From: Candidatus Saccharibacteria bacterium RIFCSPHIGHO2_12_FULL_47_16b
Lineage (GTDB): Bacteria > Patescibacteriota > Saccharimonadia > Saccharimonadales > UBA10212
NCBI GenBank assembly: GCA_001790525.1
Contig: MGCU01000023.1
Coordinates: 5,659 to 69,658, forward strand
Direction of reading: 5' to 3'
Length of the DNA stretch: 64,000 nucleotides
In this document: positions 957 to 51,655 of the stretch, piece by piece
Layout of the letters: each line of letters opens with the position of its first letter
Position numbering within the stretch: the stretch's first letter is position 1
Notes under the pieces: model-generated
The model's database searches: none
The model's input: only the letters and a program-made list of their open reading frames with translations
What the model was told of the DNA's origin: nothing
Position numbers and translations under genes: made by a program

Positions 957-1299
957 TTGCCTCGATTATACAGAAGTCACGTATTCCATGTGCTTGCATT
1001 TGAGTGCAGCGCAAATCTTTTTAAGACTTATCATATTTGGGTGCGGTACAAGGAAGAAGCGAGCAACGAACTGAGATGTATACAGATATACTTTGAAGGA
1101 GTAGCGTAGCTTCTGACGATGTAATGCGTCAAAGATGTAAGTCGTCTGGAAATGAAAAGGCGCCCTTGTTTAAGGGGCGTCTTTTCTACAGTTTGGCTAC
1201 CGAAGTAGTTACGCTGTAGCCACCTCACGATGGCACATTACAATTTACGCCCAGTCGAAATAGCAGTCAATAACTTCTGCTGTGTATAAATGTTGTAGT

Positions 1300-1899
1300 T
1301 TATGCCTGGTTGTCAGCAAGAAACTTTTTAACCTTATCAAGTACCTTATGTGTAATAGCTTTTTCGGCCAGCAAAACATCAAGGGCTTCTCCCAAGGTAA
1401 AGACGGCATACAAGTTGTAGCCTCTTTCAGCCAGATTTTTTTTGGCTCCCTGCTCACGATCTAATAGAACTACAACGTCATTAACTTTCAATCCTTCTGA
1501 TTCAAACGGCTGAATAACCTCAAACTTGGAAGCGCCAGTCGTAACCATGTCATCTATCAAAACCACTGTTTCCCCAGGCTTATACTCTCCTTCGATTGGT
1601 TTCTTGATGCCGTGATCTTTGATCTCTTTGCGGGTGTAAATCCATGGTCGGTTGCTTACGAGCGATATGGCAGCCGTAATCGGCAGCGCGGTATATGGCA
1701 CAGCTCCCATCCTATCGAATTTCAATTTTGCCAAAATATCGCTATAGACCTTGGCTACTTTGCGCATAGTTGCCGGATAAGAAACTAGAACTCGTAAATC
1801 AATATAAATTGGTGAAACCAACCCGCTCTTAAGCGTGAACTGGCCAAACTTTATGACGCCGATGGAATTAAGCTCAATGATTAAATCTTTATGCTCCAT
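1300..1899 (-). CDS. pyrE: orotate phosphoribosyltransferase
   Basis: PRTase motif [13 protein letters not shown]. Overlaps pyrF by 11 nt. Confidence 0.85.
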
Positions 1900-5546: not shown

Positions 5547-5613
5547 CCCCGCTTATTTTCGTGAGTAGAATAGTCTGCAACCAGATTATGGAACTTCTAA
5601 AAAATGTGCGGGG
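5547..5613. repeat. ~70-nt hairpin mini-element, copy 1 (CCCCGC...GAGTAGAATAGTCTGCAACCAGATTATGGAACTTC...GCGGGG)
   Basis: Shares a GAGTAG(T)CTGCAA(T/C)CAGATTATGGA(G/A)CTTC core and GC-rich inverted termini with copies at 43044-43111 and 44140-44208. Confidence 0.5.
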
Positions 5614-6831: not shown

Positions 6832-8079
6832 GTGAAGATCGGGTTGGTCTGTCCCTATAATATGTTCGATAGAACTGGCGGTGTCCAACAGGTTGTCCAG
6901 CACCTCCACGATGGTCTGACCAAAAAAGGTCACATCGTCAAAATTATTACCCCAAAGCCACCGGGCTTTAAAAATGAGGCGCCAGATGACTACATTATTT
7001 TAGGCTCAACCACCAATTTTACAGCCGGTTTTGGTGCCGCCGGCAACTGGGGCTTGCCTACCGATAGTAAGGAAATGGCCCAAATTTTAAAAAAAGAAAA
7101 ATTCGACGTTATTAACTTCCATGAACCCTGGGCACCGTTACTGGCCTGGCAAATGATCAGACAAACTAAAGCGGCCTTTGTGGGCACCTTTCATGCCAAC
7201 TTATTCGATAGGCCGTCAACCTCTTCCTGGGTTAATGTGTTTACACCTTACGCTCGGAATTTGGGCAAGCGTTTGCACGTTATAACCGCTGTCTCACCGG
7301 CGCCAGCTGCCCTAATGATTCAAAAAGCTCAAACTAGTTTTGAGAAAAGAATGGTTGCCGATATTAAGTACATTCCTAACGGTGTTGACCTTAATATTTA
7401 TAAACCATTCAAAAAACGCCTGCCGCTTAACGGCCCAGACACTAAAACTGTTCTTTATGTTGGCCGGCTAGACAGGCGAAAAAATGTTGAAGCTTTAATA
7501 AGAGCCTTTGCTTTAGTTGAGGCTAAAATGCCCAAGGCCTACTTAAATATCGCTGGTGAAGGTTCCAGGCGCGGTAGTCTGGATCAACTGGCTAAAACTT
7601 TAGGCATTAAAAACATTCATTTTAGCGGTTATGTTAACGAAGACGAAAAGCGACGTTTAATGGGTAATGCTGACGTTTTTTGTAGCCCCGCGATCGTTGG
7701 TGAAAGTTTTGGCATAGTCTTGATTGAAGCCATGGCAATGGGTTGTCCGGTAGTGGCTGGTAGAAATTCCGGCTACATTCATGTTTTGACCAATACCGGT
7801 AGAGTCGGCCTAGTTGATCCTAAAGCGACCGAGGACTTTGCCGAACGTTTGATGGTTATAATAAGCGACGGCAAACTAAGTAGTACGCTTCGGGCCTGGG
7901 GCTTAGCCGAAGTTAAAAAGTTTGATTACACCAAAATAATTGATCAATATGAAAAGACCTATATGGAGGCTTATATCAAGTGGCGGATAGAGCAGCATCT
8001 TAACGGTGTTAATAGCAAGAATGCAAAGAAATTCTGGAAAACTAAGCGTCGCTTTCCTTTACGACGATTCTTTAGATAG
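6832..8079 (+). CDS. GT4-family glycosyltransferase
   Basis: GT-B/GT4 architecture. EX7E-like region GESFGIVLIEAMAMGCPVV. N-terminal GGVQQVV. Confidence 0.75.
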   Translation: MKIGLVCPYNMFDRTGGVQQVVQHLHDGLTKKGHIVKIITPKPPGFKNEAPDDYIILGSTTNFTAGFGAAGNWGLPTDSKEMAQILKKEKFDVINFHEPWAPLLAWQMIRQTKAAFVGTFHANLFDRPSTSSWVNVFTPYARNLGKRLHVITAVSPAPAALMIQKAQTSFEKRMVADIKYIPNGVDLNIYKPFKKRLPLNGPDTKTVLYVGRLDRRKNVEALIRAFALVEAKMPKAYLNIAGEGSRRGSLDQLAKTLGIKNIHFSGYVNEDEKRRLMGNADVFCSPAIVGESFGIVLIEAMAMGCPVVAGRNSGYIHVLTNTGRVGLVDPKATEDFAERLMVIISDGKLSSTLRAWGLAEVKKFDYTKIIDQYEKTYMEAYIKWRIEQHLNGVNSKNAKKFWKTKRRFPLRRFFR

Positions 8080-9184
8080 GCCCGATGGCGTCTCACAATA
8101 CGTCAGGACGTTGGGGGCTTGGCTAGCTAAAGGCGGCCATAAAGTTACCTATTTAGTCGGTCAATCAAAACTGCCATCATACGCTGGCGGCAAGGTCTAT
8201 TCCTTAAGCAAAAATCTACCCGTTAGTTGGGGCGGTAGTCGCTTATCAATTTCAGTTTTTCCAAAATTGAAGGCCATAAAAAAAATTCTCGATCAAGAAG
8301 ATTTTGATGTAATTCATGTCCAATTTCCTTACTCGCCTTTTATGGCAAAGTTGGTAATTAATGCTGCCAAACCGCAAACGGCAATTGTCGGCACGGTTCA
8401 TATATATCCTGCCAACCGACTGGCAGTGGATGGCTCGCGAGCCTTAAAGATAATTTATGGCAAAAGTCTTAAGCGGATTGATAAAGTAATTAGCGTTAGC
8501 CGGGCTGCAGCCAACTATGCTGATGATGTTTTCAAGCTGCAGACTGATATTTTACCGAACGTGGTTGATCTAGCAAAATATCAATCCACCGCAATGGTCA
8601 GCCAACAACAATCTAAACACATTGTTTTTTTAGGCAGGCTGGTTAAACGTAAAGGCTGCCAACAGCTACTAGAGGCCTTTCGATTACTTTTGAAAAAAGA
8701 TGCCGATGTGCACTTGAGCATTGGCGGCCAGGGTCCGTTGCGAACTAAACTCGAGCGCTACGCTAAAAACTATGGTCTTGAAAACAATGTTAAATTCTTG
8801 GGTTTTGTGCCTGAAGAAGCTAAGCCGTCTCTACTGGCTAGTGCGGCCATTGCCTGCTTCCCTTCTCTTTATGGCGAATGTTTCGGGATTGTCTTAATTG
8901 AGGCCATGGCGGCTGGTAGCGGCGTAGTTATCGGCGGTGATAATGAAGGCTATCGCAGCGTGCTTGGAAGCCGACCGAGCCTGTTAGTCAATCCTAGGGA
9001 ACCTCAAGACTTTGCCGACAGATTGTATCAGCTATTAAACAATAGCGCTTTAGCCAAAAAACTACATCAGTGGCAACAAGCAGAAATTAATCAATACGAC
9101 GTTGCAGTAGTTGGTCCAAAGCTAGTGGAACTTTATAAAGAGACAATTGCCAAGCGCCGCTCAAGCATGCATAATTTAGGTTAA
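8006..9184 (+). CDS. GT4-family glycosyltransferase (second tandem copy; 5' end overlaps the previous gene by 74 nt)
   Basis: GECFGIVLIEAMAAGSGVV and N-terminal DGVSQYV...KGGHKV. Paralogous to the upstream glycosyltransferase. Confidence 0.7.
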   Translation: MLIARMQRNSGKLSVAFLYDDSLDRPDGVSQYVRTLGAWLAKGGHKVTYLVGQSKLPSYAGGKVYSLSKNLPVSWGGSRLSISVFPKLKAIKKILDQEDFDVIHVQFPYSPFMAKLVINAAKPQTAIVGTVHIYPANRLAVDGSRALKIIYGKSLKRIDKVISVSRAAANYADDVFKLQTDILPNVVDLAKYQSTAMVSQQQSKHIVFLGRLVKRKGCQQLLEAFRLLLKKDADVHLSIGGQGPLRTKLERYAKNYGLENNVKFLGFVPEEAKPSLLASAAIACFPSLYGECFGIVLIEAMAAGSGVVIGGDNEGYRSVLGSRPSLLVNPREPQDFADRLYQLLNNSALAKKLHQWQQAEINQYDVAVVGPKLVELYKETIAKRRSSMHNLG

Positions 9185-10260
9185 TGGAGAGACCGAGAAA
9201 GATAACGGTCGCGGTGACTAACCGGACAATGGTCCGAGCCATCTTCTGGCTGGCTGTCGCCGTGCTTGGTTATAAATTTATCGGCATGGTTTCTCATGTA
9301 CTGACTTTAATCGCCGCGGCTGTCTTTGTGGCTCTAGCGCTTAATCCGGTAGTCAGTGCCATTAGCCGACGCCTGAAAGTTCATAGTCGGATTCGGGCCA
9401 CTGCTTCAGCCTATTTACTGGTGGTGGCAGTTCTAACACTGTTCTTCGTATTAGTTATTCCGCCGCTAGTACAACAAACTCGGGATTTTATTAGAGATGT
9501 TCCGCAAAAAGTTCAGAATTTCCAAGATCAGGATAATAGTCTGTCTCGAGCGGTCAAGCGCTACGATTTAGACGAAAAGTTAAACCAAGCCGCTAAAGAC
9601 TTTGCCTCTAATTACGGTGGCTTTGGCTCCAAATTACTCGATACCGGCCGGCGGGTAGTTGAGGCGCTAGTTTCAGTATTAGTGGTTTTGGTTTTGGCCT
9701 TTATGATGCTAGTTGAGGGTCCGGCCTGGCTAGAAACTTACTTTAAGGTTTTGCCAGAAAGAAAGCGTGAGCATCACCGGCGCCTAGCTCATAAAATCTA
9801 CCGAGCGGTTACAGCCTTCGTCAACGGCCAGGTCATATTAGCTGCCGTGGCTGGTCTGTTTGCTTTTATCGCTCTAGAAATTGCTGGTCAGGTGCTGAAT
9901 ATACCGACTAACGCGGCGGCTTTAGCTGGTATTGTGGCGGTCTTTGGGATCATTCCATTATTTGGCAACCCGATTGCTGCCAGCGTTGTGGTACTGGTTA
10001 GCCTGCTAAATTCAGGGGCTCTAGCTGTCGTCATGGCTATTTACTTCATCGTCTACTTCTTTATTGAAAATCATACCTTCCAACCTTACATCCAATCTAA
10101 GTTAAGTGAACTAACCCCGCTAACGGTCTTTATAGCGGCTTTGATTGGTATTGGCTTTGGCGGAATTTTAGGTGCGATCGTGGCAATTCCGGCAGCTAGC
10201 ACCGTTAAGATCATAATCGAAGATTACGTCCGACGTCGCCGTCAAGTTGTTGGCAGTTAA
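9184..10260 (+). CDS. AI-2E family (PerM/UPF0118) membrane transporter
   Basis: ~8 hydrophobic segments. Size and topology match the AI-2E family. Start overlaps the glycosyltransferase stop. Confidence 0.55.
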   Translation: MERPRKITVAVTNRTMVRAIFWLAVAVLGYKFIGMVSHVLTLIAAAVFVALALNPVVSAISRRLKVHSRIRATASAYLLVVAVLTLFFVLVIPPLVQQTRDFIRDVPQKVQNFQDQDNSLSRAVKRYDLDEKLNQAAKDFASNYGGFGSKLLDTGRRVVEALVSVLVVLVLAFMMLVEGPAWLETYFKVLPERKREHHRRLAHKIYRAVTAFVNGQVILAAVAGLFAFIALEIAGQVLNIPTNAAALAGIVAVFGIIPLFGNPIAASVVVLVSLLNSGALAVVMAIYFIVYFFIENHTFQPYIQSKLSELTPLTVFIAALIGIGFGGILGAIVAIPAASTVKIIIEDYVRRRRQVVGS

Positions 10261-13676: not shown

Positions 13677-14855
13677 TCATTTTATCACGTAAATCATTCG
13701 CGTTTCGGGCGTATTCGGCCAAGCTAACAACGAATAATTAAAGCCATAAATTAAATGAATGAGAGATAGTGCCAAGATTAAAACGTAGGCAAAGTTTCTT
13801 GGGATGGGATTTTTCGGAAATACATTTTGCCACTCCAAATACAAAAAACGTAGGCCAGCTGAGGCAATAACGGCTAGTGGCGTAAGTGCAAAGATCAGAA
13901 ATATAGACAGGTTGTTTAATCCAGAAAAGATGACGGCGCCTATTACCATACAAAGCAGCCAGTATAATTTTTTGCGAGACGATGATTGCATGGCATAAAC
14001 ACCGAAAATCATTAAAACAGACACTAGTGTGGTAAGAATCGGTAACCGCCCAATAATAAATTCCATTTGTTCCTTGGCACGAACAAATAAAGTCAATACT
14101 GACCAGCCAATATTTTTTAGAAAATCGGTTACGGTTGGTAAATCGTTCGGGATAAGAGCTAATGATTTTAGCAGATTAGGGCTAACCACCAGACTGTAAA
14201 TAAGCGGTGACAAAATTAGAACAGACAATAAAAAGCCGCCCATAAAAGTCAACTTACTGAGCCGTTTGACATTGAACCAGAGAATCTTACGGCTGACGAT
14301 TAAAGCTGCCAGGAACAGCCAGATTAGGCCGGGTATATAGAGACTGGCGGCAATAATAAAACAAAATACCAACCAAGCTATGTTCACTCTATTTTTGGTT
14401 CTAGCTAGCCAATAATAACTGGCCAAAACTAAAACCGGTGACAGAAACAGGATGAATGGAGTGCCGCTGCGGCCAAAAATAATAGTCCAAGGTAAAGATG
14501 CGAAGATGATCGTTGCAGCTAGAGCGATAATTTTACCGAACCATTTGGCGCTAATCAAGTAAAAACAGACGATAAAAAGCACTGCCAAAATAACAGAGGT
14601 CAATCGCAGACTAAAGGCCGAAAATTCAAATAAATTCTGCAAGCCATACTGAATTAGCTTATGCGGACCATACAATGGATTATCAATAATCGCCTTAATT
14701 GAGGAGCTGTTGCCGGCAGCTGTAGTTTCACTATTACTAAGACCAAGATAATCTAATCGCCAGATAAATAATAAATAAAAAAGGCCGCTGCTCAGAACTA
14801 TGAAAAAGACTAACCGAGGGTTTATTTTTGTCAGCCGCCCTAACCGACTTAGCAT
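13677..14855 (-). CDS. polytopic membrane protein (possibly a GT-C-type glycosyltransferase)
   Basis: ~11 predicted TM helices with aromatic-rich loops. No diagnostic motif identified. Confidence 0.45.
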   Translation of the reverse strand: MLSRLGRLTKINPRLVFFIVLSSGLFYLLFIWRLDYLGLSNSETTAAGNSSSIKAIIDNPLYGPHKLIQYGLQNLFEFSAFSLRLTSVILAVLFIVCFYLISAKWFGKIIALAATIIFASLPWTIIFGRSGTPFILFLSPVLVLASYYWLARTKNRVNIAWLVFCFIIAASLYIPGLIWLFLAALIVSRKILWFNVKRLSKLTFMGGFLLSVLILSPLIYSLVVSPNLLKSLALIPNDLPTVTDFLKNIGWSVLTLFVRAKEQMEFIIGRLPILTTLVSVLMIFGVYAMQSSSRKKLYWLLCMVIGAVIFSGLNNLSIFLIFALTPLAVIASAGLRFLYLEWQNVFPKNPIPRNFAYVLILALSLIHLIYGFNYSLLAWPNTPETRMIYVIK

Positions 14856-14875
14856 GTAGCTAAGTATAACAAAGG

Positions 14876-16246
14876 TTAGGTTTCGAAAGGTTCTTCGTGC
14901 TTAGTGTCTAAATCTCGTATCTGCTGTCTAACACGGTCGAAATAGACTTCCAAGTTAGCCACCGGACCATTGCGGTGCTTCTTGACCATTAGATCCATAA
15001 TGTTTTGCCGTCCGGTATCTGGGTTATAGTACTCTTCGCGGTATAAAAAGACGACTATGTCAGCATCCTGCTCAATTGAACCCGATTCGCGCAAGTCGGC
15101 CAGTTGCGGTATTTGCGGGCTTCGGCTTTCAACGGAGCGAGAAAGCTGAGAAGCTGCCACTACCGGAACATTTAATTCTCGGGCTAGGATTTTCAAACTC
15201 CGGCTGATCTCGGAAATCTCTTGGACGCGGTTGGCCACCGTCGCAAAGCGCGATCCGCCACTCATCAGCTGTAAATAATCAACCATAATGACCGAAAGGG
15301 GGTGCTGATGATGCAACCGCCGGGCTTTAGTTCGAAGGTCCGATACTGTAATGCCAGAAGTATCATCAATGTATACAGGCGCTTCCGCTAGCTCGCCCAT
15401 AGCAGTGCTTAACTTTTCAAAATCACTATCAGTTAAACCGTCGCCGGTCCGCAGTTTCCAAGCATCGACTCCAGCTTGAGCTGCCAGCAAGCGATCAACC
15501 AACTGCTCCTTACTCATTTCCAGGCTAAAATATAGTACTGTGCCATGTTCAGCTTGGGTGGCAATGTTAAGTGCCATATTAAGCATCAAGGCGGTTTTAC
15601 CCATTGATGGTCGGGCGGCAATCACGTCAAGATCAGACCGTTGTAGGCCAGCCAGCAATTTATCGAGATCGCGCATTCCGGTTGCCAGGCCGCGCAATCG
15701 GCCTTTGTGGCGATGCAGATCATCTAACCTATCAAAACTTTCGCCTAGGATTGATTCCAACGGTGTTATGTCTTGTTTGACACTGCGTTGGGAGACTTCG
15801 AATAGACGAGCTTCGGCTTCTTCGATTAACTCCTGCAGGCTTTTGCCCTCTTGTTGACTGATATTAGCGATTGACTCCGAGGCCTCAATTAGCCGCCGTC
15901 GGATTGATTTTTCGGCCACGATTTCAGCATAGTGTTCGACGTGCGATGAGGTTGGCACAAAGTTAGTCAGTTCGGTCAAGTAACCGGCGCCACCGACATC
16001 ATCTAAATCGCCATTACTTTTAAGTTGCTCGGATAAGGTTAAGATGTCAATTGGTCGGTGTTTTTCGAAAAGTTTACGCATCGAAGCGAAAATTCGTCGG
16101 TGCTGCTCATTAAAAAAATCTTCGGCTTTTATCGAATCAGCAATTTTAATAAAAGCTTCGCTATCGATTATTAAACTACCAAGTAAGCTGGCTTCAGCGT
16201 CAGCACTTTGCGGAACGGATGTTTTTTTAGCGTCCATCAGACGCAC
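14876..16246 (-). CDS. dnaB: replicative DNA helicase DnaB
   Basis: DnaB N-domain plus RecA-like domain with Walker A (ARPSMGKTA) and GLATGMRDLD. Confidence 0.9.
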   Translation of the reverse strand: MRLMDAKKTSVPQSADAEASLLGSLIIDSEAFIKIADSIKAEDFFNEQHRRIFASMRKLFEKHRPIDILTLSEQLKSNGDLDDVGGAGYLTELTNFVPTSSHVEHYAEIVAEKSIRRRLIEASESIANISQQEGKSLQELIEEAEARLFEVSQRSVKQDITPLESILGESFDRLDDLHRHKGRLRGLATGMRDLDKLLAGLQRSDLDVIAARPSMGKTALMLNMALNIATQAEHGTVLYFSLEMSKEQLVDRLLAAQAGVDAWKLRTGDGLTDSDFEKLSTAMGELAEAPVYIDDTSGITVSDLRTKARRLHHQHPLSVIMVDYLQLMSGGSRFATVANRVQEISEISRSLKILARELNVPVVAASQLSRSVESRSPQIPQLADLRESGSIEQDADIVVFLYREEYYNPDTGRQNIMDLMVKKHRNGPVANLEVYFDRVRQQIRDLDTKHEEPFET

Positions 16247-18576: not shown

Positions 18577-19179
18577 CTAGCTTAGTTCGACTGTCGCGCC
18601 AGCTTCTTCCAGGGCCTTTTTCGCCTCTTCGGCTTCGTCTTTTTTGACTTTTTCTTTGACTGGCTTGGGGGCGGCGTCAACAATGGCTTTAGCTTCACCA
18701 AGACCTAGTCCTGTAACGTCTTTGACCGCTTTAATTACGGCGACTTTTTGCGAACCGGGGTCTTTAAGGATGACGTCAAACTCACTTTTTTCTTCAGCGG
18801 CGGGACTGCCGGCTTCACCGCCGGCTGCTGGTGCTGCCACGGCACTAACTGGCGCAACGGCACTAACTCCCCAGTGTTCCTCCAAAACTTTGATAAACTT
18901 GCTTACTTCTAGGGCGCTCAGTTTATCGAGTTCTTTGACCAGGCCTTCAAACTCTTTCGGAATTTCAAGCTTGGCTTTAGCTGGTTTTTCTTCTGGTTTT
19001 GGCTTGGAGTCTGCCTTAACCTCTGTCTTTGGTGCTTCAGCCGGGGCTTCTTCCTTAGTATGAGCCTCGGCCGGTGCGTCGGCGACTTTTTCGGTTGCCT
19101 CTACAGCCGTTTCAGCTTTCATTTCTTCCTTAACTTTTTCTTCTGACTTAGTTGCCTTTTCGGCTTCTTCGTTTGCCAT
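18577..19179 (-). CDS. rplL: 50S ribosomal protein L7/L12 with ~75-aa acidic/lysine-rich N-terminal extension
   Basis: L12 N-terminal dimerisation segment [16 protein letters not shown] and C-terminal domain [17 protein letters not shown]. Preceded by an E/K/A/P-rich low-complexity extension. Confidence 0.85.
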
Positions 19180-19922: not shown

Positions 19923-20678
19923 CTAGTTTTTACTTGGTTCTTTGGAGTTTTTGTTAGTTGATTTATCGTCTGTTAATTTGACGGTCAGAGGCTTGGGCTC
20001 GTTCGGTGGATTAGGCGGCAGCAAGGGTTTTATCTCTTTCCAAATGGAGTTGCTAATTTGTCTAACAGCGAGTTGATGGCCCTTTTTGGCGCAGTTTATC
20101 TTAGTAAAATCTTTTGGGAAAAGACTGCAAAGTAATTCATAGGTGGCAATTGTGTTAATTAGATGCTCTTCGTCAGCTTCGTGCTCATCAGCTAAACCGG
20201 CACGGGTCTTAATACGTTGATTGGCAATACCGATTGGCAAATGCAGGTAAATGTTGAGATCTGGCCGCGGAATACCAAGCAGTTCATACTCTAAACTTTC
20301 GGCCCAAATAAAAAAGCCGCGTTTTTCGCCGCCGCTAGCAAATTTGGAGCCTTGATGGGCCATATTAGAACCAACATAGCGATCGGCTAGAACTAACTTA
20401 CCTTCTTTGAGGGCGTTGCTGATTTTAGTAGCTGCCTCGTACCTGTCGACAGCGTAGAATAATGAGGCTGTGTAGGGGCTGATTTCCGAAGCAGGGCCAT
20501 ACGCGCCAGCCAAATATTGTCTGATGAAATAACTAGATTTCGCCCGGTAGCGGGGAAAACTAACCGTTGCCACCTCATAACCCAAGGCCATCAGGCGACC
20601 CTCTGTCAGTTTTAGTTGAGTTGATTTACCTGCTCCATCCGAACCTTCTAGGACAATAAACAAACCTGGGTGGTTCAC
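19923..20678 (-). CDS. tmk: thymidylate kinase with Pro/Lys-rich C-terminal tail
   Basis: P-loop LEGSDGAGKST and DRY motif. Tail PPNPPNEPKP... Confidence 0.85.
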   Translation of the reverse strand: MNHPGLFIVLEGSDGAGKSTQLKLTEGRLMALGYEVATVSFPRYRAKSSYFIRQYLAGAYGPASEISPYTASLFYAVDRYEAATKISNALKEGKLVLADRYVGSNMAHQGSKFASGGEKRGFFIWAESLEYELLGIPRPDLNIYLHLPIGIANQRIKTRAGLADEHEADEEHLINTIATYELLCSLFPKDFTKINCAKKGHQLAVRQISNSIWKEIKPLLPPNPPNEPKPLTVKLTDDKSTNKNSKEPSKN

Positions 20679-20879
20679 CGCATACTCCGCACCGCCGCCC
20701 TGCCAGCCAGCCGAGCCGGCTGCACCGGCGGCTCTTGGCGCATTACGGCGTCAGAGCCTGCGGTACTCCTTCGCGCCGTATGTTCATATACAGCGAAGTA
20801 AAGGTCCTCGACTCTTCCTTGTACTGCATCCAAGTGCGAAGATGCGGTAATCGGTTCACACAGTCTGAAGATGAACATT

Positions 20880-21605
20880 TTAGAGCGCTTTCAGGCCTTT
20901 GATTTTGGGCGGTTTGGTGCGCGAATCTTTATAGGCTTTAGGTAGCATTTGTTCCGGTGTCCATTCTCTTATAAGTTTGTCAAGGTTGGTCCCCGATTGA
21001 TACTTACCGGAAAAGCCGCTGTGGCGACCTCTGCCATAATTTCCCTCAACTGGTCCGGTTTCGTGAAAGACAGCCTGAGCGATTCGTTCGCCAACCGGTA
21101 GCAAAACGATATCTTTTTGATTTAAATTGTAAATCTCCATTGTGAGGCGGTTGATATAGCCCGGATCAACCCAGCCAGCATCAAAGACTGCCGCTATACC
21201 ATTGCGCCCCCAGCTAGAGCGCGACTTAACCTCATAGGCCCCCGGGGGCAATATACCGAAAAATTCATGGGTATGGGCCAGTATCCTCTCGCCGGGCTTC
21301 AGCGGGATTACCGGGTGATTTGGCGGAATGCCGGCCAGCAGACTGACGCCATTTTGTTTGCACCACTCGGCGTGTTTGACAGCCGTGAACGGTCCTTCGA
21401 AATACCGCGCGACGTCGGCTTTATCAAAAGGGTTGTAAACACGCTTATCGCCGACTTTTTCGGTCCGGTAATAGTAGTGTCCAAGAGTTACGTCCAGGCT
21501 GGCATGCGAGACGTGCTTTTGGTTGAATGGCTGGCAAATTATATGGCCCTCGGCAATTGCCTGTCTAATCTGTAGGTTACTGAAAACTCCCATAGGTTCC
21601 TTCAA
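20880..21605 (-). CDS. dcd: dCTP deaminase / dUTPase-superfamily protein
   Basis: SRSSWGRNGI..VDPGY...LEI.N motifs characteristic of dCTP deaminase. Confidence 0.65.
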   Translation of the reverse strand: MKEPMGVFSNLQIRQAIAEGHIICQPFNQKHVSHASLDVTLGHYYYRTEKVGDKRVYNPFDKADVARYFEGPFTAVKHAEWCKQNGVSLLAGIPPNHPVIPLKPGERILAHTHEFFGILPPGAYEVKSRSSWGRNGIAAVFDAGWVDPGYINRLTMEIYNLNQKDIVLLPVGERIAQAVFHETGPVEGNYGRGRHSGFSGKYQSGTNLDKLIREWTPEQMLPKAYKDSRTKPPKIKGLKAL

Positions 21606-21659: not shown

Positions 21660-22187
21660 TTAGCGTTTGACTGCTTTTACTCTGATGGGGCGCTTTTGAC
21701 CTTTATATTTTTCGACCCGATTATTTATAAGCTCAAATTTAACACCAGCTGTCTTAAAGATGGCTTTAGTTCGCTGGCCGGCATGGTAGTCGTTAAGTGC
21801 TACCACTCGCTCAATGCCGGCGTTGATTATCATCTTAGCGCAGGCGTAACAAGGCGTCATTTTGCAATAAAGTGTGCCACCCTCCAAGGCAATCCCTAGG
21901 CGGGCGGCATGAGCAATGGCGTTTTGCTCGGCGTGAGCGGTCCGTACGCAATGCTTTGAAATAGTGCCATCGGCATTTAGAGCTTCCATAAGCTCATGGC
22001 CGTCTTTGTCGCAGTGTGGAGTGCCGGCTGGAGAACCGACATAGCCGGTAGCCAGTATCCGCTTATCACGAGCAATAACACAGCCTGACTGTCCTCTTTC
22101 GCAGGTGGCTCGTTTAGCCACGGCTGCCATAATTTCTAAAAAATATTCGTCCCAGCTTGGTCGGGCCACAGCTATCTCTTTCGTCAT
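21660..22187 (-). CDS. dCMP deaminase (ComEB-like cytidine/deoxycytidylate deaminase)
   Basis: Zinc-binding HAEQNAI and PCYACAKMIINAGI motifs. Confidence 0.8.
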   Translation of the reverse strand: MTKEIAVARPSWDEYFLEIMAAVAKRATCERGQSGCVIARDKRILATGYVGSPAGTPHCDKDGHELMEALNADGTISKHCVRTAHAEQNAIAHAARLGIALEGGTLYCKMTPCYACAKMIINAGIERVVALNDYHAGQRTKAIFKTAGVKFELINNRVEKYKGQKRPIRVKAVKR

Positions 22188-22208: not shown

Positions 22209-23183
22209 TTAGCTCAAAGCCAGTCTGATTGACGGGCCCATGCTGGTTGTTAGGTAAACTGAGCTTATGTACGCACCTTTTACGGAGGCCGGCTTGGCGG
22301 CCTTGAGGCTTTTTATAACCGCCTCGGCGTTAGCCACTAGTTTGTCTTTACCAAAACTAACTTTGCCGATCGCCAAGTGGACAATTCCGGCTTGATCGAC
22401 TCGATATTCAACCTTGCCGGCTTTGGCGGCTTTGACCCCAGCCGTAATATCGGTGGTAATGGTGCCGCTTTTCGGATTTGGCATTAGGCCTTTCGGGCCG
22501 AGTAACTTAGCGTACTTGCCAAGCTGCGGCATCATAGCTGGTGTTGTTAACAGGATGTCAAAAGCAATTTCCGACTTATCTAGTTTGGCTAGCAGATCGT
22601 CACTACCAGCCATGTCGGCGCCAGCGGCCTTGGCTTTTTTTATGTCAGTCTCATCGGCAAAGACTGCCACTCGGACTGTTTTGCCAGAACCAGCTGGTAA
22701 ATTAACAACATCACGAACGTTCTGATCGGCCAGTTTAGGATCAACATTAAGATTAAAATGCATCTCGACCGAGGCGTCGAACTTAACCGGGCTAGTCTTA
22801 ATCGCCAATTCTACCGCTTCAGCCAATTCGTAAACTCTACCTTTTTCAACCAACTTAGCAACATCACGGAACTTTTTACCGGCTCGTTCTAATTTTGAAC
22901 GCGGTGGTTTTTGCTTGGGTTTTGGTTTGGCTTCGGCCTCGCCAGCAACTACCTTAGCTTTACGGGCTTGTTTGGCTTCTAAATCTTCAGCTTCCTTTGC
23001 GGCCTTAGCGCTTCGCTTCCCCGCCTTAGCAACGGATGTTTTAGCATCCGTAGTCTCTAGTCTCGAGTCATTAGTCTCCTGTTCTGCTTTCTTTGCATCA
23101 TCTTTTTTATTTTTACTAGAGACTGATGACTGTCGACTGGTGACTTTTCTTTTGGGTTTAACACCAGTTTTCTTATCTACCAT
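22209..23183 (-). CDS. rplA: 50S ribosomal protein L1 with ~95-aa Lys/Ala/Glu-rich N-terminal extension
   Basis: The L1 core begins around LERAGKKFRDVAKLV. The N-terminus is a histone-H1-like low-complexity tail (KPKPKQKPP...). Confidence 0.85.
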   Translation of the reverse strand: MVDKKTGVKPKRKVTSRQSSVSSKNKKDDAKKAEQETNDSRLETTDAKTSVAKAGKRSAKAAKEAEDLEAKQARKAKVVAGEAEAKPKPKQKPPRSKLERAGKKFRDVAKLVEKGRVYELAEAVELAIKTSPVKFDASVEMHFNLNVDPKLADQNVRDVVNLPAGSGKTVRVAVFADETDIKKAKAAGADMAGSDDLLAKLDKSEIAFDILLTTPAMMPQLGKYAKLLGPKGLMPNPKSGTITTDITAGVKAAKAGKVEYRVDQAGIVHLAIGKVSFGKDKLVANAEAVIKSLKAAKPASVKGAYISSVYLTTSMGPSIRLALS

Positions 23184-39082: not shown

Positions 39083-39233
39083 TCAGAACTGGTTCTCCCT
39101 TGTTATTCCAGATTTTTCAAAATCGATGCAGTTTGGAGTGAAGACCGAGGATCGTAAGCAAGCTGTATTGCGTAATACTGCGAGTGCGACCCGGAGGTTT
39201 TCGCCCAAAATGCGCGATTTGTGAAAGATCTGG

Positions 39234-39455
39234 TTAATTTTCGCGGTAGGTTATCCGACCCTTCGTCAGATCGTAAGGTGTCAATTCTACCTTAACGCGG
39301 TCGCCAGGCACTAGGCGGATATAGTGTTTCCGCATGCGTCCAGCGATGTGAGCTATAATTTTATGGCCGTTTTCCAATTCGACTTTGAACTGGGTACCTG
39401 GCAGGGCTTCAACAACAGTCCCGGCCAGCTCAATTACCTCTTTTTCACGAACCAT
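39234..39455 (-). CDS. infA: translation initiation factor IF-1
   Basis: S1-like OB fold [31 protein letters not shown]. Confidence 0.9.
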
Positions 39456-42454: not shown

Positions 42455-43012
42455 TTACGCCGCTGTTGCCTCCTTGCCGCTCTTACCACTTTTACGGATA
42501 ATCTGTTCACCCTCGTAGCTTATTCCCTTGCCTTTGTATGGTTCAGGCTTTTTAAAGGCTCGAATCTCGGCCGCCACCTGACCCACTTTTTGCTTGTCGG
42601 CGCCGCTGACGGTAATAATATTTTGATCAACAGATAGACTTACACCCTCCGGAATTTTATAAATAACATCATGTGATAAGCCTAGGTTCATTTTAAGGTC
42701 AGTGCCTGATAATTGGCTACGGTAACCAACTCCACTTAATTCAAGTTTTATGTCATAACCTTGGCTGACGCCGGCAATCATATTTTTAAGTAGCGAACGC
42801 ATGAGACCGTGCTTGGCTCTGGTAATCGCTGTCTCATTTTGGCGATTAACTTGCAATTGATTATCCTTAACCGTTACTGTTATGTCGGCCAGCTTGGCTT
42901 GCTTAAGTTTACCTTTTAGTCCTTCAATATAAATAAAGTCTTTATCTACGATTACAGACACGCCAGGCGGTACAGCAATTGGTTGTTTACCGATACGACT
43001 CACAGAAGGCAC
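42455..43012 (-). CDS. rplF: 50S ribosomal protein L6
   Basis: Two L6 alpha/beta repeat domains. Confidence 0.9.
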   Translation of the reverse strand: MPSVSRIGKQPIAVPPGVSVIVDKDFIYIEGLKGKLKQAKLADITVTVKDNQLQVNRQNETAITRAKHGLMRSLLKNMIAGVSQGYDIKLELSGVGYRSQLSGTDLKMNLGLSHDVIYKIPEGVSLSVDQNIITVSGADKQKVGQVAAEIRAFKKPEPYKGKGISYEGEQIIRKSGKSGKEATAA

Positions 43013-43241
43013 CTCCGGTGCTCAATTATCAATTCACAATTATCCCCACACCAAAAACTTGAAGCTCCATAATCTGATTGCAGACTACTCCGCTCAGGTT
43101 TTGGTGCAGGGTAAGCAATGCTCAATGAATTATCAATTAGCAATTTGCAACTACTGGCTGCAGTTTGTTTGATAAATGACAAATGAGAAATTAATGGTAA
43201 ATGGTAAATGGTAAATGGTAAATGGAATGATGGAGTCATGA
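43013..43241 (-). repeat. Family-2 intergenic module between rpsH and rplF, carrying a nested ~70-nt hairpin mini-element
   Basis: The rc matches the 6662-6831 element module by module (AAATGGTAAATGG tandems, CATTTGTCATTTATCAAACAAACTGCA, CAATTATCAATTCACAATTATC, GCACCGGAGGTGC) with an extra insert at 43044-43111. Confidence 0.7.
43044..43111. repeat. ~70-nt hairpin mini-element, copy 2 (inverted relative to copies 1 and 3)
   Basis: CCCCACACCAAAAAC...CATAATCTGATTGCAGACTACTCCGCTCAGG...GTTTTGGTGCAGGG. The core is the rc of GAGCGGAGTAGTCTGCAATCAGATTATG. Confidence 0.55.
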
Positions 43242-43998: not shown

Positions 43999-44236
43999 CA
44001 GGCAACTCCTTCCGTCGTTGCAATTATCAATTCACAATTATCAATTTTCAACGATTTATCAAATATCAATTTACAGATTAAAGCAGAGGTTGCAGCTAGT
44101 TTGGTAAATGGTAAATGAGAAATTAATGGTAAATGCCTGCCCCGCATCAAATCCTGAGCGGAGTAGTCTGCAATCAGATTATGCAGCATCAAGATTTGGT
44201 GCCGGGGGTAAATGGTAAATGGTAAATGGAGCAATT
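43999..44236 (-). repeat. Family-2 intergenic module between rplE and rpsN, carrying nested hairpin mini-element copy 3
   Basis: CAATTATCAATTCACAATTATCAATTTTCAACG..., (AAATGGTAAATG) tandems, and the GCAATTTCATTGC palindrome at the rplE stop. Confidence 0.6.
44140..44208. repeat. ~70-nt hairpin mini-element, copy 3
   Basis: CCCCGCATCAAATCCTGAGCGGAGTAGTCTGCAATCAGATTATGCAGCATCAAGATTTGGTGCCGGGGG. The termini are an imperfect inverted repeat. Confidence 0.55.
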
Positions 44237-50951: not shown

Positions 50952-51139
50952 TAACCGCGTCCTTTGCGCGTTTGTTTGAACATATAGCCGTAAAAATTAT
51001 TGTTGGCATATTAAAAAACTCTCGGTTTTAGCAGTTTCCTTTGATGTACTTTGCGATATTGGACTTACATAAAACCAAGATTGCAGAACTGCAATAGTTA
51101 ACAGATTAACACAATTAATCGACACTGGTCAAGTTGTAG

Positions 51140-51171
51140 TAAAAATTACAGTCGGCCTCAGGTGAGGCCGG
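51140..51171 (-). terminator. Candidate terminator downstream of the yjbQ-like gene
   Basis: Perfect 8-bp hairpin CGGCCTCA-GG-TGAGGCCG followed on the minus strand by AUUUUUA. Confidence 0.4.
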
Positions 51172-51265
51172 AGGTCTGTCCTTGAACAAGGTAAGTGAAT
51201 AGTCGTTTTTACCAAAAAACACATTGCCTTTTTCAAGAACAGACCTCATCGCAAGGTCGGACCTC

Positions 51266-51655
51266 TTAAATTGTCGTTACTATTAATTGTCTGTCGCGAG
51301 GGCCGTCCAGCTCAACCAGCACAGCTCTTTGCCAAGTACCCAGAACTAGTTTTCCGTTTCGAACAGGTATACTTACGGAAGGTCCAATTATCGAACTGGC
51401 CAAATGGGCCGGCACATGAGCTGGATTATGTGGATGACGGTATTTGAGTTTTGGTATCATCTGCCAAACAGCGTCAAGTAAGTCGAGATCAGTTCCGGGA
51501 TCTAAATCGGCGGTCGTCACCGCACAAGTTGTATGCGCCGCGGAAACAATACATAATTTATCGCTAGCCTCAATTAGATTATTAACTTGCTCGGTAATGT
51601 CGATTACTTCTCGGTTTTGGCTGGTTTTTACTGTAAGCTCGATGGTTTTAGCCAT
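51266..51655 (-). CDS. YjbQ/UPF0047 family protein (secondary thiamine-phosphate synthase-like)
   Basis: 129 aa with the family pattern ...CIVSAAHTTCAVT...DLD...H...P.H... Inserted between rplC and rpsJ. Confidence 0.6.
   Translation of the reverse strand: MAKTIELTVKTSQNREVIDITEQVNNLIEASDKLCIVSAAHTTCAVTTADLDPGTDLDLLDAVWQMIPKLKYRHPHNPAHVPAHLASSIIGPSVSIPVRNGKLVLGTWQRAVLVELDGPRDRQLIVTTI

Follow-up and report, generated by a model that had tools for sequence, protein, structure and literature searches.

The dcd-tmk junction

On the minus strand of the window (the whole stretch of 64,000 nt analysed here) the gene order is rplA, a dCMP deaminase gene, dcd, a gap of 201 nt, tmk, an L10 leader recognised by Rfam, rplJ and rplL. 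The gap (20679-20879) is flanked by two minus-strand genes, dcd (20880-21605; Pfam DCD) and tmk (19923-20678; Pfam Thymidylate_kin), the latter with a GTG start. It had been described in the initial annotation as a GC-rich island of about 60-65% GC; the island is indeed there, with a slightly lower GC content of 58.2% over the 201 nt. The bias is concentrated next to tmk, with 71.6% GC at positions 20679-20780 versus 47% at 20791-20879, and at 73% GC the segment 20679-20778 is the maximum among 100-nt windows across the 64 kb (mean 45.2%, sd 6.2). The remaining gaps between long open reading frames (ORFs) have 27-47% GC, the exception being one gap that holds tRNAs.

The island is also predicted to fold stably. 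Its minimum free energy (MFE) is -87.6 kcal/mol on the gene strand (z = -3.7) and -75.6 kcal/mol on the opposite strand (z = -3.5), both z values being relative to dinucleotide shuffles. Among 953 windows of 201 nt, comparable gene-strand energies were found elsewhere only in windows on the tRNA cluster. Since an identical (100%) copy of the island is present in two further assemblies of the same species (a Candidatus Saccharibacteria bacterium of the RIFCSPHIGHO2_12_FULL_47 type), in which the flanks are 97.4-99.5% (L081) and 100% (L082) identical, it is not an assembly artefact.

The 67-codon ORF

An ORF of 67 codons (20675-20878, minus strand) fills the gap exactly, its AUG lying 1 nt past the dcd stop codon (TAAAATG) and its UGA overlapping the GUG of tmk (GTGA). 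This fit would favor a real small protein, coupled between dcd and tmk. The codon-usage score of the ORF (-0.06) falls short of the scores of all 67-codon segments taken from real genes of the window (mean 0.30, sd 0.12), a fully open frame also occurs in 45% of shuffled versions of the island, no Pfam domain was found in it, and a word-indexed protein search with it returned only itself. A full HMMER scan with the ORF against 1.84 billion representatives identified a 65-amino acid ORF, P0003, that is 52% identical, and P0003 as query led in turn to a 67-amino acid ORF, P0004 (52% and 77% identity for these ORF relatives). The top HMMER match, a repeat protein of 3072 amino acids (P0002), was judged spurious from its repetitive composition.

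The existence of two related ORFs of similar length would again speak for a protein, but they proved to be the same DNA element placed directly upstream of unrelated genes, namely murJ (L162) and a flavodoxin-like reductase gene (L163/L164). The L162 and L163 copies have ATGA start/stop overlaps comparable to the TAAAATG and GTGA of the window copy. The reading frame differs between the window copy and L162 across a conserved hairpin, and copies are offset in frame by +1 and +2 over a hairpin conserved at the nucleotide level; the substitutions are compensatory in RNA pairs. An open frame is limited to a GC-rich subfamily of three copies, and its openness in these is ascertainment-biased because they were found through their ORFs. 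Among copies detected by covariance model and not by way of a called ORF, most are interrupted by stops in each of the three sense frames. Considering the codon usage, the frame differences and these stops, the ORF is not a conserved protein gene, which agrees with its original description as most likely spurious, and we regard a genuine small protein as very improbable. The ORF is instead a by-product of insertion and may serve as a bridge for translational coupling. The element thereby explains the spurious "hypothetical protein" annotation A3F65_03835, and the case illustrates that RNA elements can surface through ORF-based protein searches.

A dispersed family of related copies

For identification of further copies we used two covariance models, R1 built from three sequences and R2 from nine. 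Searches of the sampled loci gave about 12 copies, which occupy 10 loci in some 6 genomes, all of them Saccharibacteria. The element measures about 160-190 nt, and the first three copies are 78-90% identical in nucleotide sequence over about 157 nt. Copies share a common architecture in which stem P1 closes the structure, P2 forms a long arm with conserved internal loops and P3 is a hairpin, absent from some copies. The GC content of copies elsewhere in the family is as low as 42-60%.

Two additional copies were found in the window. The first (1029-1151, plus strand; 73.8 bits with R1 and 95.1 bits with R2) is AT-richer, consists of P1 and P2 without P3, and is antisense to both of its neighbours, a Glucosamine_iso gene and a Pribosyltran gene; a terminator scan placed a terminator-like hairpin (1163-1176) directly after it on the same strand. 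The second is a degenerate copy (39114-39253, plus strand; 45 bits with R2, E about 4e-7) with a shortened P3, located between infA and rpmJ and antisense to both, which also occurs in other assemblies of the same species (L174). Both are degenerate in P1 and P3. A BLAST search for repeats within the 64-kb window had returned no match to the island because these other copies are too diverged.

The copies in other genomes occupy a variety of positions. Locus L162 has one copy antisense to both neighbours (1358-1514, minus strand; 104 bits with R1) and another (7941-8099, plus strand; 92 bits with R1), with an orthologue in L172 (2515-2671), that contains the lepA AUG within the 3' side of its junction. 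Further copies lie just past the murJ stop codon in antisense orientation (L166 11612-11768, minus strand; 113 bits with R1), between convergent genes (L171 2318-2475, plus strand; 110 bits with R1), and upstream of dcd, with a GGAG 5 nt ahead of the ATG (L033 169-370, plus strand; 41 bits with R2). In total the element holds a sense leader position at five loci (tmk, murJ, lepA, the flavodoxin-like gene and dcd), and at five further loci it is placed where a leader role is impossible, which is consistent with copies lying in either orientation relative to genes.

The distribution is patchy. No copies were found with the covariance models in about 1.2 Mb of other Saccharibacteria loci, among them those of MurJ relatives at 93%, 89%, 84% and 78% identity. 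A search with the L36 protein of the window for other species returned the same species only. Among the approximately 12 copies, no near-identical pairs were seen at different loci of one genome.

We considered that the family might consist of stand-alone genes for small RNAs, which would act in trans or sequester proteins, that have spread by duplication to several genomic sites and of which the tmk copy happened to land in an operon. Such genes would account for a structure that is specific to one strand whatever the orientation of the neighbours (see below), and for the terminator-like hairpin that follows copy 1029-1151 on its own strand. Against this, the other non-leader copies lack terminators, the two additional window copies are degenerate in P1 and P3, and no promoter borne by the element was evident, the -10-like boxes of leader copies being owned by the host genes. 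We consider this explanation unlikely.

Conservation of the fold and its strand

The evidence that copies are related through an RNA-like structure comes from their alignment. In the nine-sequence alignment 94.3% of cells are paired, versus 77.2% in column shuffles and 23-46% with slid partners, and compensatory (both-side) changes are present in 32 of 54 pairs and involve every helix; since this alignment was fitted to the model, these figures are somewhat inflated. RNAalifold analysis of three unfitted sequences, which gave 54 pairs with double changes in 9, points in the same direction. One hairpin, for example, reads CGCUGUAU/AUACGGCG, GACGUAU/AUACGUC and GCUGUAU/AUACAGC in three copies. 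The compensating pair changes, together with the difference in frame across a conserved hairpin, indicate that conservation acts on nucleotides and not on protein. The gap had been proposed to be a candidate structured non-coding RNA, with covariation among relatives as the test, and covariation is what the alignment of relatives revealed, for a fold on the gene strand. The particular stems singled out at the time, GAGCCGGC...GGCGGCTC and TACGGCG...CGCCGTA, are locally possible pairings but are not backed by covariation.

The alignment has 46 G·U cells versus 9 A·C cells, and one U·G pair is invariant. From the excess of G·U over A·C it follows that selection acts on the fold of one strand, in the form of RNA or single-stranded DNA. 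Conserved unpaired nucleotides occur alongside the covarying helices. That the fold is kept up on one strand regardless of the orientation of the host gene suggests that it matters to the element itself, or that the copies are snapshots of a constrained source lineage.

These observations also bear on whether the island is simply an inert piece of GC-rich DNA acquired from elsewhere, such as an actinobacterial host, whose structure plays no role. Its anomalous composition would suit such an origin, as might the matches to high-GC organisms obtained when the island was compared by BLAST with plasmids and phages, although these were at chance level only; two pattern scans of viral contigs gave no match. 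Yet homologous copies of 42-60% GC keep the fold via compensatory changes, and no donor sequence was found, so that we give this explanation very little weight.

Searches against known RNA families

No Rfam 15 model matched the island at gathering score on either strand. Relaxing the threshold to E<=10 for the window, L163 and L162 copies gave only unrelated noise (HOTAIRM1, mir-1181 and others), and at E<=0.1 the whole loci L162, L166, L171 and L172 had no match at the elements. The initial annotation had pointed to a partial resemblance to small SRP (4.5S) RNA. This did not hold up: scanning with the SRP, 6S, RNase P and riboswitch models of Rfam 15 gave no match in this copy or its relatives, even with the threshold relaxed to E<=10. 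Apart from the short motifs on which that resemblance was based, an SRP-like RNA, another housekeeping RNA or a fragment of one could draw only on an 8-bit, 15-nt match at noise level between the L162 copy and helix 8 of Metazoa_SRP. An element that is multi-copy and polymorphic, with an architecture unlike that of bacterial SRP RNA, makes such an identity extremely improbable.

Several other structured RNAs, covered by the Rfam scans, were considered and dropped, as their motifs were unconserved across copies or their architecture did not fit: the hammerhead (CUGA..GAA around a hairpin), parts of group I/II introns, 5S rRNA, the T-box, retron non-coding RNA and CsrA sites. We found no description of the element in Rfam 15 or in the searchable literature on Saccharibacteria, Patescibacteria and CPR, and the literature searched reported no regulatory RNAs or repeat families for Patescibacteria.

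Anatomy of the tmk copy

The core of the tmk copy (20685-20841, minus strand; 157 nt, 62% GC) is a three-way junction of P1, P2 and P3 and scores 166.8 bits with R1 and 149.5 bits with R2. The MFE fold of the island agrees with the consensus fold of the family. P1 is formed by the 5' strand CUUCGCAC (20834-20841, minus strand) and its partner, the 3' strand GUGCGGAG (20685-20692, minus strand), and across copies 7 of its 8 pairs show changes on both sides. P2 (20735-20833, minus strand) is a long irregular hairpin and the most conserved part of the family, retained even in copies that lack P3; its helices (helices 2-5) are 95-99% paired with 17 compensatory pairs. It contains the invariant U·G pair and conserved internal loops, namely CAAGG, CGAGGA(A)C facing GGAGUACCG, and tandem G·A. 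By our reading, the loop in which CGAGGA(A)C faces GGAGUACCG (GAA/AGUA) is loop-E/bulged-G-like. P3 (20694-20732, minus strand) is the hairpin GCCGCC...GGCGGC, from which the composition anomaly of the island mostly arises. It covaries strongly, reading for example GCAAUAA/UUAUUGC in L162 1358-1514.

The 3' strand of P1 holds a Shine-Dalgarno (SD)-like GGAG (20685-20688), which, as read from the sequence, sits 6 nt upstream of the tmk GUG. Outside P1, the trailer UAUGCG, the tmk GUG (20676-20678) and A20675 make up positions 20675-20684 (minus strand), of which 20675-20683 (AUGCGGUGA) form the 3' arm of an outward extension of P1; the 5' arm is UUACCGCAU (20842-20850, minus strand) and the extension adds 9 pairs. 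Outward extensions of 5-10 bp with copy-specific sequence are found in 8 of 10 copies; the closing stem with its extension amounts to 13-18 bp, of which the inner 8 bp covary and the outer 5-10 bp are specific to the copy. In a model of a 271-nt dcd-tmk mRNA, the predicted probability of being unpaired is 0.001 for the GGAG and 0.015 for the tmk GUG, and the tmk ribosome-binding site (RBS) is predicted to be locked in a structure of about -88 kcal/mol. Upstream of the extension is GTGAACC (20853-20859, minus strand), an exact 7-mer repeat of the tmk start region at 20672-20678, and still further upstream comes what we presume to be the native dcd-tmk spacer (20860-20879, minus strand), 20 nt that are AT-richer, lie outside the element and are not conserved among copies.

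Empty and filled insertion sites

For the dcd-tmk junction we used 80 genome loci obtained through dcd relatives and 80 metagenome loci obtained through tmk relatives, two of the latter being left out of the comparison (about 78). Neither BLASTN nor nhmmer detected the element at this junction in any of the approximately 160 related loci. Where dcd and tmk are adjacent in relatives, the spacers that were measured or read are short: about 30-40 nt in L001 and L014 and 7 nt in the nearest relative, L083 (Tmk 78% identical), whose junction reads TAA-GCTAACT-ATGAATCAC. The lack of any copy found at related dcd-tmk loci and the short spacer in L083 argue that the insertion at the tmk start is recent and patchy. 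In the window the two GTGAACC copies (20853-20859 and 20672-20678) bound an insert of 174 nt (20679-20852). An exact repeat of this kind is weak taken alone, as 24 of 300 shuffles equal it, and it is in keeping with the duplicated start regions described next; it may be a target-site duplication.

At murJ, three loci lack the insert: L166, L167 and L172, the last encoding a MurJ that shares 97% identity with its L162 counterpart. The empty start sequence reads ...ATGAATAAATGGCTTACC, and the filled start in L162 reads ATGAATAAA-[22-nt leader + core + 9 nt]-ATGAATCGATGGCTTACC, with the murJ start region duplicated as ATGAATAAA / ATGAATCGA. The lepA start is likewise empty in L171 and filled in L162 and L172, where the first ~17 nt of lepA are found, diverged, on both sides of the element. 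In the lepA copies the 3' strand of P1 is the lepA coding sequence itself, with a 5' strand that matches it. The -10-like boxes that precede the murJ and lepA ATGs by 11-12 nt occur at the empty sites as well and are therefore host-gene features, which makes murJ and lepA look leaderless or short-leadered.

Several features of the insertions can be set beside those of transposons. Exact flanking direct repeats are short and were not significant per copy in a shuffle test, and at non-leader copies no flanking duplication beyond CTAG was evident. The terminal pairs vary in sequence, unlike the inverted repeats bound by classical transposases, and together with the variable lengths of the duplicated starts they do not fit a classical transposase signature. 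Next to the copies we found neither a transposase or reverse transcriptase gene nor any other partner gene; a single weak Y1_Tnp gene is present in L167, a locus without copies of the element. The lack of an adjoining partner gene and the shortness of the flanking repeats are points against mobility.

A mobile element or a regulatory leader

The position of the element ahead of tmk had led to its description as a riboswitch-like leader for that gene. The leader position and the pairing with the RBS stand; a dedicated tmk leader or riboswitch does not, given that the neighbouring genes are unrelated, copies lie in both orientations, no copy was found at about 160 related dcd-tmk loci, and the element is polymorphic between near-identical strains. 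A broader version would have the element serve as a riboswitch or protein-binding translational leader of a regulon comprising tmk, dcd, murJ, lepA and the flavodoxin-like reductase gene, in which P1 would be stabilised, and the SD and start codon hidden, when a ligand or protein bound the junction or the loops of P2. It is true that conserved unpaired nucleotides, including the internal loops, accompany covarying helices, that in five of five leader copies the SD or start region is base-paired within P1 or its extension, with predicted sequestration of the SD, and that at lepA the 5' strand of P1 matches a 3' strand made of coding sequence; the conserved loops and the RBS-pairing stem do also fit a host regulatory RNA. 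Nevertheless, three intact copies, with R1 scores of 104-113 bits, run antisense to the genes on either side or lie between convergent genes and so cannot be leaders, strains whose MurJ proteins are 97% identical differ in carrying the element, no dcd-tmk copy was found in any relative, the downstream genes are functionally unrelated, and no Rfam riboswitch matches. A regulon of this kind therefore seems to us improbable, to about the same degree as stand-alone small RNA genes.

Homologous copies at unrelated loci, with presence and absence between close relatives, are what is seen in mobile elements, and the data fit a recently mobile, dispersed structured element better than a tmk riboswitch. 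We think it reasonably probable that the island is one copy of a dispersed, non-autonomous, apparently mobile structured element known so far only from some Saccharibacteria. The conserved fold probably serves the propagation of the element or an RNA-binding partner and not the sensing of a metabolite related to tmk.

The sample comprises about 12 copies, and transcription, folding and coupling of the element are predictions. The following sequence of events is proposed for tmk. Insertion of about 174 nt just after the first 7 nt of the gene would have left GTGAACC on both sides, and the 3' end of the element would have brought a GGAG Shine-Dalgarno 6 nt ahead of the retained tmk GUG. According to the folding model, P1 base-pairing with both the GGAG and the GUG would bury the tmk initiation region. 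Ribosomes ending dcd could reinitiate at the AUG that lies 1 nt further on, translate the 67-codon frame, which happens to be open, and so melt the element, then stop at the UGA that overlaps the tmk GUG and restart on tmk, which would constitute translational coupling. We infer that tmk expression is probably kept in this way, through the ORF. Coupling is the most economical route because the RBS is predicted to be locked, tmk is presumably essential, and the layout is dcd-UAA-A-AUG...UGA/GUG-tmk.

More speculatively, and at best a tentative suggestion, the element may represent a new class of mobile structured RNA of the Patescibacteria, which are ultrasmall parasites. It would propagate via its three-way-junction fold, as RNA or single strand, and insert preferentially at the very beginning of coding sequences, often those of leaderless genes, within the first codons. 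In doing so it would duplicate the start codon, bring in an SD and lock the initiation region in P1. Such an element would amount to a portable cassette of translational control, possibly read by an RNA-binding or RNA-guided protein.

The element is a candidate new RNA family to add to Rfam, one that is supported by covariation, strand-specific and apparently moving between gene starts. Its predicted burial of the RBS of essential genes (tmk, murJ, lepA and dcd) is of interest in itself, and the tmk copy would show how, in nature, an inserted element can leave its host gene expressed by way of its own SD and coupling. Patescibacteria have tiny genomes of about 1 Mb, and the element would mark recent genome dynamics in Saccharibacteria/Patescibacteria.

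Comparison with known systems

Similarity to bacterial small SRP (4.5S) RNA is confined to short motifs (GCUGGCAGGG, GAAGGAG...GCAG); unlike 4.5S RNA, the element fails the covariance model, is multi-copy, forms a three-way junction and has no helix-8 loops with a GNRA tetraloop. There is a closer likeness to translational riboswitches that hide the SD, in that a junction is closed by P1, the SD lies in the 3' strand of P1 near the start codon, and conserved loops occur with covarying helices. The element differs from them in having no coherent gene association, no conservation at orthologous sites and no Rfam match, and in having intact copies without a downstream gene.

MIRU repeats lie between the genes of operons and carry a small ORF that overlaps the flanking stop and start codons, an arrangement that suggests translational coupling and that is similar to the TAAAATG ... 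GTGA of the tmk copy. However, MIRU are tandem repeats of 40-100 bp without a conserved branched fold, whereas our element occurs as a single unit per site, with no tandem arrays, and its open frame is confined to the GC-rich subfamily.

The Correia elements of Neisseria, enterobacterial ERIC, the palindromic elements of Rickettsia (RPE) and REP/REPIN are short, non-coding, multi-copy and polymorphic between strains. They are found in either orientation in or beside genes and are co-transcribed with them, and some alter translation or mRNA stability. The element resembles these repeats in being 100-200 nt long, non-coding and multi-copy, in being present or absent in close strains, and in having a long terminal stem. 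It differs in being a branched three-way junction and no simple palindrome, with conserved internal loops and strand-specific G·U pairs; its terminal pairs are copy-specific and no cognate transposase was seen adjoining copies; its copy number is apparently low, with 1-3 copies per 12-64 kb sampled and none in most relatives; and, unlike known repeats, it inserts into first codons with the start duplicated and carries its own SD. Even with these differences, by analogy the element would appear to work most like the small structured bacterial repeats (Correia, ERIC, RPE and REPIN).

The ribosomal-protein cluster around tmk and dcd

The rplL (L7/L12) ORF at 18577-19179 of the window encodes 200 aa with a long N-terminal extension rich in Lys, Glu and Ala, and the longest rplA (L1) ORF, at 22209-23183, likewise carries a charged N-terminal extension. 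The latter ORF spans 324 aa, whereas rplA was called at 214 aa in GCA_001790615.1, and we regard the true starts of both genes as uncertain. A dCMP deaminase gene (21660-22187) sits between rplA and dcd; L083, the nearest relative at this locus, lacks it there, so that rplA is followed directly by dcd. The nucleotide-metabolism genes within the ribosomal-protein cluster differ among close lineages. Within dcd of L081, which comes from another assembly of the window's species, ~60 nt (2452-2511) could not be aligned to the window, where the corresponding segment is 57 nt, and the genes called in the L081 record do not include dcd. A gap, a misassembly and a variable segment are all possible explanations of this mismatch.

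A second dispersed element

We noted a second dispersed element of ~75 nt, unrelated to the main three-way-junction element. Its three copies in the window, at 43053-43114 (plus strand), 44138-44197 and 5562-5597 (both minus strand), all lie in gaps between genes, and another is found at 10586-10647 of L162, a Saccharibacteria locus with the main element at murJ and lepA. Identity to that copy, from another Saccharibacterium, is 88-94%. The closing stem, CCCCGCACCAAAA...TTTTGGTGCGGGG, differs in sequence from copy to copy and covaries, and the interior that it encloses, CTTGAAGCTCCATAATCTGATTGCAGACTACTCCGCTCAGG, is highly conserved; the element had no Rfam match at the gathering score. Folding energy is unusually low for GC content, on both strands, at 51055-51322 and ~42948-43215 (residual z = -3 to -4.4), and no Rfam family was found for either stretch at the gathering score. 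The first is located in the 314-nt gap 50952-51265 and the second overlaps the ~75-nt repeat.

The murJ and lepA starts

In these Saccharibacteria a TATAAT/TATACT box lies just 11-12 nt 5' of the murJ and lepA ATG (L162 5990-6000 and 7895-7912, with the same sites in the comparison loci L166, L167, L171 and L172), a spacing which suggests that both mRNAs are leaderless or have a very short leader. Upstream of murJ in L165, a different insertion of ~115 nt (~9905-10012) occupies exactly the site that holds the main element in L162. It ends in 14-nt terminal inverted repeats, CCCGTTAGACTCCA / TGGAGTCTGACGGG, is flanked by ATGAAT on either side, and has the stretch CTTGAC-N5-CGCTGTC in common with the L162 leader. 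The start of murJ looks like an insertion hot spot. Upstream of murJ in L173 (~445-500), the leader ...CTGTCCACG runs straight into CGGTGGTGCGGAGGGCGTGGGGTGAAT; the long arm P2 and the hairpin P3 are missing, and the 3' strand of the closing stem P1 is retained with its GGAG. This sequence looks like a footprint, or an internally deleted version, of the L162 insertion. The L167 locus, which has no copy of the main structured element, contains a 23S_rRNA_IVP gene and, near it, a 204-aa gene (14267-14881, minus strand) with a weak Pfam match to Y1_Tnp, the IS200-like tyrosine transposase.
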